A stretch of 12,901 nucleotides of DNA from a bacterium (GTDB taxonomy: Bacteria; Arandabacterota; Arandabacteria; Arandabacterales; JALGWA01). Made by a program: the position numbers and the translations under genes. The stretch lies in assembly GCA_050125095.1 (NCBI GenBank), contig JASFEA010000090.1, positions 1-12,901 of the forward strand. Direction: 5' to 3'. Positions within the stretch are counted from its first letter, which is position 1. The number at the start of each line of letters is the position of its first letter. The notes under the pieces are model-generated. The model saw nothing but the letters and a program-made list of their open reading frames with translations. It had not been told where the DNA came from and did no database searches. Below, piece by piece: positions 1-4,848 of this stretch.

Positions 1-897
1 GCCATCGGACTCGAAGCGCCAGCGGAACCTCGGACCGGCGGTGTAGCTGTAGTCGCCGGGGTCGATCTCGGCCTTGAAGGCCGGCTCGCCGCCGACGCTG
101 CGCGTCTGCCAGTTACAGTTCACCAGACGGTTCGTGTCCGTGTTGCCCCAGTAGTCCGGATTGCCGCCGCCGGGAGTACCGCACTCTGAGCCAGGGTTGT
201 TACTCGTGGCATTGAAGAGCCCGATCTCCACCCACTGAGAGCCGTCGTACATCTCCAGGAAGAAGTAGTCGTACTTGCACTCAGTGTCGTAGCGGGGGTC
301 GAAGTAAACCGTACAACCGTTCGCCACGTCAAATGTGCCCGGAAGTTCGAGCTCGGCGATACAGTTCCACTGATCTCCGTAACCCGGCGGATTGATCCAG
401 GTACCACACTCTACGGGAATGCCCTGCCACAGAGTGTCGGACCCGCACCACAGAGCAGAGTCGCCGCAGTAGCTCCTCTGATCGGTCCTGTACGTGTCCA
501 TGTGCCAGTAGTTGACACCCGTCTGCGAAGGCAGCGCGCGGACGTCATGATGGGAGATACAGCCCGGAATATCGTCCCACGGCGGGTTAGTGCCGCAGGA
601 ATCGCCGTAGGGCCAGTTCCCCTCAAAGCACCACGTCTCGCTGCCGTCGGGGCCACCGATGGCCTCACCGCCGTGACCGCCAAGCGGGTCACCGGGGCAG
701 TAGGTCTCGTTTGTGTGTATCTGGACCCAGGTCGTGTCGCCGGCCTGTAAGATCATAAAAGGTCCAGCTGCAGGTAGCCTGCCGACCGCATAGTCAGGCG
801 GCGGTACCGAACGCACCGGCTCCTTCATGGCGAAGGCAGCAAAGGCCGTCAGCAGTACCAGGGCCACCGCTAATGTTACTACTCCAAATCGCATCAT
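1..897 (-). CDS. Secreted Cys-rich protein, paralog of 1361..4597 (3'-truncated by window edge)
   Basis: Manual translation from ATG at 897 (GGAGG at 910-906, 8-nt spacer) is open for 299 codons to base 1: MMRFGVVTLAVALVLLTAFAAFA-MKEPVRSVPPPDYAVGRLP...QAGDTTWVQIHTNETYCPGDP...FDPRYDTECKYDYF...PRFRWRFESDG. Signal peptide ending A-F-A; aligns nearly colinearly with the N-terminus of the neighbouring gene. Absent from the ORF track because no stop lies in the window. Confidence 0.95.
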   Translation of the reverse strand, partial: MMRFGVVTLAVALVLLTAFAAFAMKEPVRSVPPPDYAVGRLPAAGPFMILQAGDTTWVQIHTNETYCPGDPLGGHGGEAIGGPDGSETWCFEGNWPYGDSCGTNPPWDDIPGCISHHDVRALPSQTGVNYWHMDTYRTDQRSYCGDSALWCGSDTLWQGIPVECGTWINPPGYGDQWNCIAELELPGTFDVANGCTVYFDPRYDTECKYDYFFLEMYDGSQWVEIGLFNATSNNPGSECGTPGGGNPDYWGNTDTNRLVNCNWQTRSVGGEPAFKAEIDPGDYSYTAGPRFRWRFESDG

Positions 898-905
898 GGT
901 CTTCC

Positions 906-1017
906 CCTCCGATGCAATGCAAATTACCTACCGGCAACGTGCCGGCAGATTAAGCCTTTAGGGAATTCACTTGTTGTCGGACAGGTTGAATCCCGTGCGG
1001 CAAACGGGAATCGGAGG
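906..1017 (-). ncRNA. Candidate structured 5'-leader RNA, copy 1
   Basis: Closing helix CCUCCGAU (1017-1010)/AUCGGAGG (913-906, contains the SD); hairpin UCCCGU-UUGCCGC-ACGGGA (1009-991); block CCUGUCCGACA (985-975); 11-bp hairpin AUCUGCCGGCA/UGCCGGUAGGU (950-926). Same blocks and order as 4611..4724. Confidence 0.6.
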
Positions 1018-1083
1018 TAAAACGTAATTAAGCTAAGTCGGCATCACCCCCTTCACTTGAAGCTGAAAAAGTCCAGCCTATGG

Positions 1084-1360: not shown

Positions 1361-4300
1361 CTACTTCAGAATCAGCATCTTCTTCGTGGCGTTGAAATTG
1401 CCGGCGTTCATCTTGTAGAAATAGACTCCACTGGAAACCCGTTCGCCAGCCAGGTTTTTGCCGTCCCAGTTCGCCGCATAGCGGCCCGGTTCGACCCGGC
1501 CGTCTACAAGTGTAGTCACAAGCTGACCCATGGCGTTGTAAACTTTGATGTTCACATCCGCGGCGCGGGCCACCTCATACCGGATCTCAGTCACTCCGGC
1601 AACGGGATTCGGAGCGTTCTGATGAAGCGCCCACTGGAATTGCGCCTGTTTGGGAATATCACTGGTGCCACCCGTACCGGAACCCTGCGAAGGCAGACCG
1701 AATATGTCCTCCAGAATCGTGAGGATCAGATCTACCCTGCCCTCATAGGCACCGGGAGCGAATGACTGGTATCCCAGCGGCGCATTGCCCGTGCAATATT
1801 GATACGTGTGGTTTATCGACGCACATAAGTCAAAATTGACATACGCGCATTGACCCGTGCCCTGGTACTCGACATAAACCCCCATGTCCGCCTGGGCGAC
1901 ATCAGGATTTAGTACCGTCAGAAGCGGCTGCGCCGTGTATCCTGCCGGCGGGTTGACTTCTGTCTTGATCCAGCTCATGTCCTTGAGATAAGGACATTCC
2001 CTGTAAACAAGCATGGTGTCCAGGTCCAATGAAGTCGGAGTGCCAAACACGTTGACCGACGCAGCGCCTTCAGCATAGATGTAAGGCTTGTTGAACGCTG
2101 ACGGCATCTCATCAATGTAGTCGGTCCCCATGATGCCGCTCAAGAATTCTCCGCCAAGAGAATCCTCACCCACGCCGCCCTCGCTCTCCGGGGCCGCGCT
2201 ATAAGCCACCCGGTCGCCGCACAGAATCACCTTGCCGCCGCCGGCCAGATAATTGCGCATCTCTCTCTGGGCCTCGGCGTCGAATATGTCATTCGAGAAA
2301 TACGGCCCCGAGAACCACACAACGGCGTCGTAGTCGGTATTCCAGGTGCAGAGATAATGGATGTGGACGTTGGTTCCCGCTCCGGCGACGTCGAATTTGT
2401 CGTAGCAGTATCCCGCATCCGCCAGGGTGCGCTCGTAGATGTCCTCAAGAGGCTCGATATTATCCGCGGCGGCGAAGCACTGCGAATAATCGTAGTTCCG
2501 CCTCCCGTAGCCGTCCACAAGGAGTATTTTCACCCCGCTGTATTCCTCCGGGTAACGCGGCAGGATGTCGAATGTGTAGTAGTCCTCCGCGCGCCCCGTG
2601 TGATCCGGATCCGATGGATCCGCCTCATTGGGGAAGTACTCCTCATTGCTCAGGCCGTCAGTGCACTTCGCGTAATACCAGACCTGGGTGCCGCGCGCCC
2701 ACTCGCTCTCGCCGAAATCGTCCGGGCATAGCGTGCCCGTGTACTCTCCGCCGAGCGCCGGGTTGTGCGGGTCGAACGCCTGGAACAGATCCATTTCAAC
2801 CGACACCCAGGTGGCGCCCTCATCGATGCTGCCGATCAGTTCTACCGTGCTGACCTCATCCTTGTCGGTGACGTCTATGGTGAACGTGTTGAGCACCGGT
2901 ATCGAGTGCGCGCCGCCCGTGTAGTAGTTGATAGTATCGGGATCATAAGCGTCGAAATTCGAGTTGTACCCGCAGATACCCGGGAAGAACGAATCGCTCA
3001 GCAGGTCCGTGACCGTTACCTGGAACACGGTTGCATCTCCGTCGAAGAAACCGATGGAGACATTATCGATGATGTTCTCCGTGCCCCTATGCTTGCCGCG
3101 GCAGAACTGCCCCAGCGCGGAGTAGTCCTTAATGTCAAACGCGAATTGCATCGAATCGTGGACACCGCTGTAGAAGGGCGTAACATCGTCCTCGAAGTCG
3201 AAATTCCAGAAGAAGCAGCCGGACACCAGGTTGGTCTCGTCGATATCTATCCACGGGCACCACTGATCGTTCACGGCGTCACGGAACCGCACCATCGTGT
3301 TCGTGGCGTCGCAGGTTATATCCGGAGCGCACATGAACTGATCGTACTGAACGACGCACCCGGTGTTGAGCAAGGGCATCGTCGGAGCAAGCAGCCTGTA
3401 GAACCAACCGTTTCTCCAGGGCACCCCGACAGGATAGCCGCCTTCCGGCCTGGCTCTCCAGACTATGGACGAGTCCAGCGTGCATGTGGTTCGATCTCCC
3501 CCGTCACCTCCTTCGTACGGCGCGTCCGGGTCGTGGACCATATGCCACTGGTCTATTACGCCGTCCGGATCGGGGAAGCTCCAGTAGGAATCGAGACCCG
3601 TCTCGAAGTCCATGGTGTAGGTCTCGTCGTCTCCGACCACAACGACGTTATCGATAAATGCCGCCCCGTCACTGTTGCCGCTTCCGTCGGCATCGCTCCA
3701 GCCGCCATCCGACTTGAAGCGCCAGCGGAATCTGGGTGCCGTCGTTACGCCCAGCTCACCGGGATCGATGAAGGCGTGGAACGCCGGAATTCCGGAAATC
3801 GCTCTGGTCTGCCAGTTGCAGTTCAACAACCTGCTGGTGTCGGTATTGCCCCAGTAGTCGGGGTTCCCGCCACCCGGCTGGCCGCATTCCGCCCCGGGGT
3901 TGTTGCTGGTAGCGTTGAACTGCGCCAGCGACTGCCATTGAGTTCCGTCATGGTACTCGACATAGAAATAGTCGTACTTACATTCGGTGTCGTACCTCGG
4001 GTCAAACATAAGACTACACCCGCTGGCAACATCGAATGTCCCCGGAAGCTGCAGTTCGACAACGCAGTGCCAGTAGCTGCCGTACCCGGGGGGGTTGACC
4101 CATGTTCCACACTCGGTCGGCATACCGTTCCACATGCTGTCGGCTCCGCACCAGAGCGCCGAGTCGCCGCAATAGGACCTCTGGTCCGTTCTGTGGTCGC
4201 TGACATGCCAGTAGTTGATTCCCACTTCAGACGGCTGTGCCCACACGTCCACATGTCTGAAGCAGCGGGTGTCCCAGGGCGCATACGTGCCGCAAGAGTC

Positions 4301-4597
4301 GCCGTAAGGCCAGTTGCTCTCGAAACACCATGTCTCGCTGCCCACGGGACCGCCCTCGGCCTCGCCTCCATGACCGTCGAAAGGATCGCCCGGGCAGTAT
4401 GAGTCACTTGTATGCACCTGTACCCAGGTGGTGTCTCCTGCTTGAAGAATCACGAAAGGTTCAGCCATAGGTAAACGGCCGACTGCATAGTCTGGCGGCG
4501 GTACGGGCTTCGTGGGCTCCCTATATGCCAGGGACTCTGTTGCCAAGCCGCTGAGGATCATCCCCGTTGCCACCAGTAACGCAAATGCTAACTTCAT
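1361..4597 (-). CDS. Large secreted Cys-rich multidomain protein (two MAM/jelly-roll-like modules, GATase1-like fold segment, FlgD Ig-like/T9SS-type C-terminal domain), 1078 aa
   Basis: Start moved to ATG at 4597 (GGAGGTG 4610-4604, 6-nt spacer), giving signal peptide MKLAFALLVATGMILSGLATESLA. YDTECKYDYFYVE...RFRWRFKSDG...FIDNV resembles InhA-type MAM-like modules; KILLVDG...YDAVVWFSG...YLAGGGKVILCGD resembles a class-I GATase-like fold; tail QNAPNP...VYNAMGQLV...WDGKN..G..VSSGVYFYKM...TKKMLILK. Domain names are from motif recognition only. Confidence 0.9.
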   Translation of the reverse strand: MKLAFALLVATGMILSGLATESLAYREPTKPVPPPDYAVGRLPMAEPFVILQAGDTTWVQVHTSDSYCPGDPFDGHGGEAEGGPVGSETWCFESNWPYGDSCGTYAPWDTRCFRHVDVWAQPSEVGINYWHVSDHRTDQRSYCGDSALWCGADSMWNGMPTECGTWVNPPGYGSYWHCVVELQLPGTFDVASGCSLMFDPRYDTECKYDYFYVEYHDGTQWQSLAQFNATSNNPGAECGQPGGGNPDYWGNTDTSRLLNCNWQTRAISGIPAFHAFIDPGELGVTTAPRFRWRFKSDGGWSDADGSGNSDGAAFIDNVVVVGDDETYTMDFETGLDSYWSFPDPDGVIDQWHMVHDPDAPYEGGDGGDRTTCTLDSSIVWRARPEGGYPVGVPWRNGWFYRLLAPTMPLLNTGCVVQYDQFMCAPDITCDATNTMVRFRDAVNDQWCPWIDIDETNLVSGCFFWNFDFEDDVTPFYSGVHDSMQFAFDIKDYSALGQFCRGKHRGTENIIDNVSIGFFDGDATVFQVTVTDLLSDSFFPGICGYNSNFDAYDPDTINYYTGGAHSIPVLNTFTIDVTDKDEVSTVELIGSIDEGATWVSVEMDLFQAFDPHNPALGGEYTGTLCPDDFGESEWARGTQVWYYAKCTDGLSNEEYFPNEADPSDPDHTGRAEDYYTFDILPRYPEEYSGVKILLVDGYGRRNYDYSQCFAAADNIEPLEDIYERTLADAGYCYDKFDVAGAGTNVHIHYLCTWNTDYDAVVWFSGPYFSNDIFDAEAQREMRNYLAGGGKVILCGDRVAYSAAPESEGGVGEDSLGGEFLSGIMGTDYIDEMPSAFNKPYIYAEGAASVNVFGTPTSLDLDTMLVYRECPYLKDMSWIKTEVNPPAGYTAQPLLTVLNPDVAQADMGVYVEYQGTGQCAYVNFDLCASINHTYQYCTGNAPLGYQSFAPGAYEGRVDLILTILEDIFGLPSQGSGTGGTSDIPKQAQFQWALHQNAPNPVAGVTEIRYEVARAADVNIKVYNAMGQLVTTLVDGRVEPGRYAANWDGKNLAGERVSSGVYFYKMNAGNFNATKKMLILK

Positions 4598-4610
4598 TAA
4601 TTTCACCTCC

Positions 4611-4724
4611 AGTACGTCGGGCTGCCGCGCGCCGGAGGCCCGGCATGCGGTCTTGCCCACAGGGGAAGCCAAAGGTGTCGGACAGGCTGTCTTTCCCCCC
4701 TCCGTGGCAAACGGGAGACGTACT
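4611..4724 (-). ncRNA. Candidate structured 5'-leader RNA, copy 2
   Basis: Closing helix AGUACGUC (4724-4717)/GACGUACU (4618-4611), directly followed by SD GGAGGUG; hairpin CCGU-UUGCC-ACGG (4714-4702); block CCUGUCCGACA (4686-4676); hairpin CCGCAUGCCGG/CCGGCGCGCGG (4650-4625). Confidence 0.6.
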
Positions 4725-4819
4725 AAACAACACGGAAATCAGTCTATATACATGCCTCCTTTCACTCAGTATTCCGTAAGCGATATTGACTGCAATCGTC
4801 CCAACCCTGTCCCCAAGCC

Positions 4820-4848
4820 ACTATACCCAACTTCCGAGAAACCGCTAG
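4820..4848 (-). promoter_or_regulatory. Putative promoter of 1361..4597
   Basis: CTAGCG-N17-TATAGT, spacer ending TGGG, just downstream of the upstream gene's terminator; matches 1084..1112. Confidence 0.4.

Follow-up and report, generated by a model that had tools for sequence, protein, structure and literature searches.

How is the synthesis of large secreted proteins set in a bacterium whose mRNA leaders can fold, directly before the start codon, into a multi-helix structure closed by a helix that reaches the ribosome-binding site? The stretch of DNA analyzed here (the window: 12,901 nt of contig JASFEA010000090.1, from an assembly of the phylum Arandabacterota) carries two such leaders, and an earlier, sequence-only reading had claimed that their closing helix (P1) covers or abuts the Shine-Dalgarno (SD) sequence in both copies, so that the folded state would be translation-OFF for both large secreted proteins. 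Is P1 a real helix? Does it act on translation through the SD, and is the P1 fold the only one available to the leader?

The minus strand is the coding strand for the genes of this part of the window. Read 5' to 3' along it, a papain-like cysteine protease gene is followed by the gene of a 1078-aa protein and then by a truncated paralog, with one leader before each of the last two (copy 2 and copy 1, respectively); the terminator-like hairpins of the preceding genes lie at 4895-4871 and 1318-1291, and the leaders come after them. The products of the copy-1 and copy-2 genes are paralogs with ~70% identity over the N-terminal 300 aa. Leader-associated proteins measure ~1080 aa: behind a signal peptide comes a large body rich in Cys, Trp and Asp, and a T9SS type A sorting / FlgD-Ig domain forms the C terminus. 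Because the protease upstream of copy 2 also has a T9SS/FlgD-Ig tail, the window neighborhood is a secretion-cargo cluster. The protein body belongs to no Pfam or NCBIfam family: searches of Pfam, NCBIfam, PDB sequences and the Atlas name only the C-terminal sorting domain, and an InhA-like MAM lead for the body is weak (Atlas score 0.88, against a reliability line of 0.9). At least 181 homologs, mostly unnamed, occur in metagenome protein sets, the family reaches up to 8 paralogs per genome, and the gene context of these downstream proteins gives no metabolic clue to the signal and points to no candidate ligand.

Both descriptions of P1 in the sequence-only reading were borne out, coordinates included (Table 1): the whole GGAGG of copy 1 lies within the P1 3' strand (913-906), and in copy 2 an 11-bp helix made of 8 Watson-Crick pairs, followed by U-G, U-G and U-A, reaches into the SD's GGA. 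The spacer between SD and AUG is 8 nt in both window copies. Folding of the ~150-nt leaders gives MFE structures that contain P1 in both copies, with z = -2.65 for copy 1 (1 of 200 shuffles as stable) and z = -2.28 for copy 2 (4 of 200).

Table 1. Features of the two leaders and their genes (window positions; position 1 is the first letter of the window).
Feature	Position	Strand	Sequence or detail	Basis
Copy 1 (type 1) decoy	1043..1054	-	GAAGGGGGUGAU; GGGGGU can pair ACCUCC (1018-1013)	
Copy 1 P1 5' strand	1010..1017	-	CCUCCGAU, anti-SD mimic	fold + anchored test
Copy 1 core	914..1009	-	includes UCCCGUUUGCC segment (loop 2)	
Copy 1 P3	994-987 with 969-962	-	GGGAUUCA/UGAAUUCC around CCUGUCCGACAAC (985-973)	
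Copy 1 P4 hairpin	950-926	-	flagged terminator-like	
Copy 1 P1 3' strand	906..913	-	AUCGGAGG, includes SD GGAGG (910-906)	fold + anchored test
Copy 1 AUG	897-895	-		
Paralog gene after copy 1	1..897	-	runs off window	
Copy 2 (type 2a) decoy	4755..4763	-	GAAAGGAGG; GGAGGC can pair GUCUCC (4719-4714), overlapping 3' end of P1 5' strand	
Copy 2 outer-helix 5' strand	4735..4741	-	UGAUUUC; pairs GAAAUUA in 156-nt fold, upstream decoy in longer context	
Copy 2 P1 5' strand	4717..4727	-	UUUAGUACGUC; 8-bp core AGUACGUC at 4724-4717	fold + anchored test
Copy 2 core inside P1	4619..4716	-		fold, comparison
Copy 2 P2 hairpin	4714-4702	-	loop UUGCC	
Copy 2 P3	4699-4661	-	invariant loop UGUCCGAC (loop 4684-4671)	
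Copy 2 P4 hairpin	4658-4619	-	GGGC/GCCC base	
Copy 2 P1 3' strand	4608..4618	-	GACGUACUGGA; core 4618-4611; last three bases are the SD's GGA	fold + anchored test
Copy 2 Shine-Dalgarno	4606..4610	-	GGAGG; 8 nt before AUG 4597-4595	
Copy 2 spacer, outer-helix 3' strand	4598..4604	-	GAAAUUA; ends one base before AUG	
Secreted-protein gene after copy 2	1361..4597	-	1078 aa; signal peptide; C-terminal T9SS type A sorting / FlgD-Ig domain	
Papain-like cysteine protease gene with T9SS tail	7468-4928	-	Peptidase_C1, E = 3.7e-44, + T9SS/FlgD-Ig tail	

Pairing of this kind can arise by chance, and several controls bear on it. The anchor word UCCCGUUUGCC is common to both copies and the 8-bp P1 cores lie directly 5' of it; the 8 nt directly 5' of TCCCGTTTGCC find a perfect reverse complement downstream, at a distance of 96 nt (copy 1) or 98 nt (copy 2). 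From one copy to the other, 3 of the 8 pairs stay unchanged and 5 have both bases replaced, and these two-sided differences support a real closing helix. As a background set, 338 long ORFs of the genome with GGAGG before their first ATG were taken: a contiguous Watson-Crick complement of at least 8 bases over the SD, within 140 nt upstream, occurs before only two (2/338), and both belong to one divergent gene pair with mirrored SDs. The members of this pair (contig C15 of the window's genome, G000) lie ~170 nt apart and their SD regions, GGGAGGAT, are mutual reverse complements, so that each leader has a perfect 9-nt anti-SD against its own SD only if transcription starts beyond the partner's RBS. 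Ranking by RNAduplex energy of the RBS against the upstream 130 nt was tried as evidence for P1 and rejected, as it did not discriminate: the copy-1 value is reached by 130 and the copy-2 value by 115 of the 338 background genes, and in shuffles by 214/500 and 14/500, respectively. As it can be read from these comparisons, the case for P1 rests on perfect, position-matched and compensated helices, not on stability. The copy-2 3' core GACGUACU, which has no SD role, is kept in the ortholog of genome G002 and in a relative's contig from an RNA library, the sole change being G4618 to A at the innermost pair; the apparent compensation comes from two or three type-2a sequences of one genus. We regard P1 as very probably a real, selected helix, and its two natural versions within one window amount to a built-in compensatory-mutation experiment.

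How widely is the leader distributed, and what is kept? Searching by pattern revealed a third copy in the window's genome, and gave matches in 13 of 61 sampled genomes, all of the window's order. A covariance model built from 13 type-1 leaders matched 13 of the 16 genomes of the order and neither of the two of the sister family, these 18 genomes being the phylum's full set in the collection; the order's three genomes without a match are 94%, 87% and 57% complete. The 19 leaders collected in all, from one order, fall into several types, and P1 is conserved across nine genera. Type 1 (the copy-1 kind) comprises 14 full leaders in 11 genomes, plus two cut by contig ends; both P1 strands and the SD are identical in 14/14, and 8/8 P1 pairs are invariant in the 13-sequence alignment. 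Such invariance is, in terms of covariation, no evidence for or against pairing, and the conservation could stem from the SD together with a further function of CCUCC. Elsewhere in the same alignment, two-sided changes affect 5 of 8 pairs in P4 and one pair in P3, which also has G-U changes; overall, the share of paired cells is 91.3%, as opposed to 40-56% if the partner is shifted by 1-3 columns.

Type 2a (the copy-2 kind) occurs only in G000 and G002. The G002 leader keeps 7/8 core pairs (C.A innermost) and the U-G, U-G of the extension, where A.A replaces U-A. A metatranscriptome library (run X13) holds a 244-nt contig (depth 19.4) with a 93%-like copy-2 leader, which covers 4560-4764, from the decoy described below into the coding region, and is unlike the window beyond 4764. 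Apart from G4618-to-A, its P1 and extension are unchanged, and it shows compensated changes in P4; A4601-to-U and a deletion at 4735 fall within the outer helix UGAUUUC/GAAAUUA and weaken it. This contig, which comes without RNA ends, is a hint, not proof, that the relative's leader is co-transcribed with its gene. Both the window and the 93%-like relative are present in public runs, as contigs.

Three further, diverged leaders upstream of paralogs (type 2b in G000 and G002, type 2c in G000) keep CCCG..GCCACGG, GGGGAA/UUCCCC and CCUGUCCGAC. No clean P1 could be assigned to them, the best candidate by eye being UUUCC plus GUCA or UCAC with GGAGGUGA(C), over the SD. The word CCGAC(A)A is found twice in the enlarged type-2b P3 loop (L329 and L330; ..GUCCGACGACAACCGACAAC..) and again just after the decoy in the type-1 leaders of genus g1 (GAUGCCGAC), and may be a repeated recognition word. 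The leader always precedes one subfamily of the ~1080-aa secreted proteins with T9SS sorting tail: among 29 further paralog upstream regions, one carries it (G002, contig C17), one is cut by a contig end and 27 are short and without the motif, as are the leaders of three more G000 paralogs. A search of genome and metagenome contigs with the pattern GTTTGCC..CCTGTCCGAC gave at least 239 loci; among the matches listed, 4 passed a loose filter and none had the leader.

Other conserved words lie further upstream. A simple promoter scan of the window flagged none of the promoter-like words of the leaders. The conserved word (C)TTGGGTATAGT, at 4820-4830 of the window (minus strand) and ~60-70 nt upstream of the type-2 decoy, also occurs in G000 (contigs C86 and C122) and in G002 (C17), and is probably the -10 region of a type-2 leader promoter; type-1 leaders have GGTATAAT-type or TTGACA..TATAAT boxes in its place. 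A 21-nt repeat, TGCATTTYMAGACCTGACCCC, is dispersed 205 times in the 3.35-Mb genome G000 (111 forward, 94 reverse; 0 for the reversed control), often in tandem or inverted pairs, intergenic and upstream of secreted-protein paralogs (for instance at C86:12614-12634 and C86:12650-12670, before the leader of a paralog), with none on the window's contig among the first 100 places listed; it looks like a REP-like element or a binding site.

The leader is ~110-115 nt long and consists of P1, a small hairpin with loop ..UUUGCC.., P3 around the invariant CCUGUCCGAC loop, and a variable P4 hairpin. The structure inside P1 is partly resolved, and the energetics given here are model predictions throughout. 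RNAalifold pairs the loop-2 UGC with a GCA next to P1, a pairing that is broken (C.A) in 2 of 13 leaders and unmatched in the G002 type-2a leader. By eye, the candidate pairings are P2 (CCG paired to CGG or UGG), loop 2 with J3/4, and GGUCA/UGACC at the 5' end of some leaders of family f2. In the 156-nt fold of copy 2, the outer helix UGAUUUC/GAAAUUA lies on the other side of the SD from P1. In five f2 type-1 leaders (L007, L008, L011, L012, L013), the predicted 5' end, GGUCAGAC, lies ~8 nt after a TATAAT box and could pair, by eye and in some MFE folds, with UGACC directly before AUG; GGUCAGAC/UGACC may thus form a second SD-flanking helix comparable to the outer one of copy 2. Copy-1 P4 is terminator-like with a poor U tail (AAUUUGCAUU). 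An attenuator based on an intrinsic terminator was looked for and not found: there is no terminator inside the copy 2 leader, tails differ among leaders, and the copy-1 P4 feature is not conserved.

Does P1 act on translation? The 3' end of the genome's 16S rRNA, ...GGAUCACCUCCUUUCU, carries a canonical anti-SD, and in 3311 regions before the first ATG of long ORFs, GGAGG counts rise to 76, 73 and 62 at -12 to -10, against ~4-11 further upstream; Shine-Dalgarno pairing is in use in this organism. In 14/14 type-1 leaders the P1 3' strand includes the SD GGAGG, which in the two type-2a leaders adjoins P1. Given this anti-SD, and with the SD included in copy-1 P1, the P1-closed fold of the copy-1 type should block initiation. 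The claim that folded means OFF for both genes is well supported for the copy-1 type, with P1 and the SD it includes identical in all 14 leaders, but is weaker for copy 2, where P1 just abuts the SD and only 2-3 wobble/A-U pairs touch it: with P1 formed, the model pairs no SD base beyond the GGA, leaves the two final G 0.97 and 0.36 unpaired, and keeps the AUG largely open.

Accessibility was predicted by folding each leader in a context of 70 nt upstream and 30 coding nt, once freely and once with the P1 5' strand barred from pairing by a hard constraint, and this comparison, which the sequence-only reading had offered as a check, gave a divided answer. The SD opens in several f2 leaders (in G006, from ~0 to 0.23-0.58), but rises in neither window copy: in the wide context, the MFE fold of copy 1 lacks P1, blocking brings no improvement in copy 2, and other pairings take over. 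On balance, we find it likely that P1 controls translation through the SD, with less assurance than we have in the helix itself.

A further element shows that P1 has a competitor. A strong SD-like tract, hereafter the decoy, lies ~25-45 nt upstream of P1 in 19/19 leaders (GAAGGGGGUGA in type 1, GAAAGGAGG in 2a, A/GAGGAGGUGAUGC in 2b and 2c), and matches the 16S tail over up to ~11-12 nt (e.g., GAAGGGGGUGAU, AAGGAGGUGAU). When the 5' segment is folded, the decoy of each of the 19 leaders pairs with a pyrimidine tract at, overlapping or next to the P1 5' strand (ACCUCC in type 1, GUCUCC in 2a, UUUCC plus GUCAU/AUCAC in 2b and 2c). These decoy hairpins do not exceed shuffled sequences in stability (z between +0.40 and -2.13; 6/200 shuffles as stable in the best case). 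With each state forced in ~70 nt of upstream context, the decoy fold has an advantage of 2.0-6.2 kcal/mol over P1 in 11 of 14 type-1 leaders, with near parity in 3, and in copy 2 P1 is the predicted ground state (-69.3 vs -65.7 kcal/mol); in the type 2a decoy state the SD is predicted to be paired elsewhere. The decoy fold and the P1 fold are mutually exclusive, as in a two-state design. The P1 fold exists, but since a conserved decoy competes for its 5' strand and is often favored by energy models, which do not single P1 out, it is one of at least two states and cannot be called "the folded state". An upstream ORF after the decoy was also considered and rejected: it stops after 3 codons in copy 1 (AUG CCG ACU UAG) and runs 23 in copy 3, two type-2b leaders change its frame, and most f2 leaders have no AUG there.

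Taken together, the reading to which we incline, with moderate confidence, is that of a riboswitch-like, SD-sequestering two-state leader in which a factor that binds the core tips the balance to P1, and which thus operates as a translational OFF switch. With P1 closed around the conserved core, the SD would be buried (type 1) or flanked (type 2a) and translation would be low; in type 1, closure would bury the SD within AUCGGAGG and block 30S binding. With the decoy hairpin formed, P1 would be open and the SD more available, making translation possible. The conserved core with its invariant loops would be the likely sensor, and the factor tipping the balance to P1 could be a small molecule, a second messenger or, with lower probability, a protein. 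We infer the switching itself, its direction and any ligand, and a small molecule as the trigger is a tentative suggestion that falls somewhat short of an even chance.

By Rfam and by a literature search on Eisenbacteria and riboswitches, the leader family is previously undescribed. Rfam 15 covariance models gave 0 matches at gathering thresholds over the whole window, the best sub-threshold scores being M23 (20.2 bits against a cut-off of 41.2, on the wrong strand) and ES003 (17.1 bits against 37), and a full-text search yielded no paper on a riboswitch in Eisenbacteria, a label taken from the sources of homologous proteins. Translational OFF riboswitches that hold the SD in P1 or the closing helix include SAM-II/V, preQ1 and some TPP and THF leaders. 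As in these, a compact multi-helix core lies directly before the start codon, and the 3' strand of its closing helix carries the SD while the 5' strand is an anti-SD (CCUCC). Unlike them, the present leaders have no Rfam match, the strand competing against P1 is a strong SD-like tract on the 5' side of the aptamer, the genes encode secreted T9SS-tail proteins rather than metabolic or transport functions, and the P1 of one subtype only abuts the SD. The add adenine riboswitch of Vibrio vulnificus, an ON switch of the purine class with thermodynamic control of SD exposure, is a three-state system in which a 5' sequence competes for the P1 strand, giving two ligand-free folds. Competition of a 5' sequence for the P1 strand is shared with our leaders, whereas their sequence is unrelated and their direction is one that we infer to be OFF. 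In Clostridia, c-di-GMP riboswitches precede secreted adhesins and proteases, and the likeness, of a leader RNA before large secreted or surface protein genes, is one of gene context only, as the leaders match neither c-di-GMP-I nor -II nor other Rfam models.

What else could account for these observations? A trans-acting protein or small RNA might read the invariant loops (CCUGUCCGAC, UUUGCC) and stabilize or open P1, with the same SD sequestration. Loops that are single-stranded and invariant are the sort of target that a sequence-specific binder could use, words of the CCGAC(A)A kind are found repeatedly (two of them in the P3 loop of type 2b, and again after the genus-g1 decoy), and the regulated secreted proteins have no metabolic link. 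However, the genes adjoining the leaders encode no candidate binding protein, and the complement of the loop occurs at 34 places in the genome against 33 for the reversed control, the exact matches being the leaders and one other site, so there is no obvious antisense partner. A compact multi-helix core closed by P1 is, in addition, more typical of ligand-binding aptamers. We consider an effector of this kind unlikely.

Less probable again is a constitutive leader, in which the upstream tract would be a stabilizer bound by 30S, the core would protect or space the mRNA, and the P1/SD overlap would be incidental or would tune the rate. The tract matches the 16S 3' tail over the ~11-12 nt noted above at most, and starts no conserved ORF. 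Such an element exists: the STAB-SD of Bacillus thuringiensis cry3A mRNA binds 16S and blocks RNase J1 (PMC4113751). The two share an SD-like tract far upstream that is complementary to the 16S 3' end and not initiating, and differ in that here the tract adjoins a complementary pyrimidine tract which is also the P1 5' strand, and in that RNase J was not found in the present genome. The search for RNase J (TIGR00649) in the 91%-complete G000 was negative, and the same search was positive in 13 of 14 control genomes, which falls short of proving absence. A stabilizer would also leave unexplained both the 110-nt core with its invariant loops and the compensated, non-SD P1 of copy 2.

A more unusual arrangement would be a riboswitch class of inverted layout, with the 5' decoy SD as anti-sequestor and free 30S as effector, either by itself or jointly with a small-molecule ligand of the core. 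Since the decoy complements the 16S tail almost perfectly, free 30S could act in this way: by binding the decoy, 30S would free the CCUCC strand, and P1 would close over the real SD. We hold this for a long shot; if true, it would tie the synthesis of large secreted proteins to ribosome availability.

RNA thermometers of the fourU and ROSE kinds are simple hairpins whose weak pairs, U-rich or non-canonical, occupy the SD. Melting of such pairs at higher temperature could be imagined here, where wobble-rich SD pairing is present (UUU with GGA in copy 2) and the MFE of some f2 leaders pairs the SD with AUUUUCCG, in an alternative register AUUUUCCG/CGGAGGGU. Yet the type-1 P1, with 8 Watson-Crick pairs of which 5 are G-C, is not labile and sits within a four-helix core, and to our knowledge thermometers need neither invariant loops nor such a core, which makes a thermometer highly improbable. 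The weakest alternative of all, that CCUCC-like tracts pair SDs merely by composition in a G+C-rich genome and that P1 has no function, is compatible with duplex energies matched by 115-130/338 background genes and 214/500 copy-1 shuffles, but is already disfavored, and very improbable, given that two diverged copies have perfect 8-mers where the shared anchor places them, 5 of the pairs being compensatory, that the background rate is 2/338 and that the helix is conserved across nine genera.

If the SD-sequestering two-state leader is confirmed, these sequences would represent an orphan riboswitch-like RNA family from an uncultured phylum, with an unusual regulon of paralogous secreted proteins that carry T9SS tails, and with a decoy ribosome-binding site, located before the aptamer, as the competing strand. 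It would also provide a handle on which signal controls secretion cargo in these organisms.
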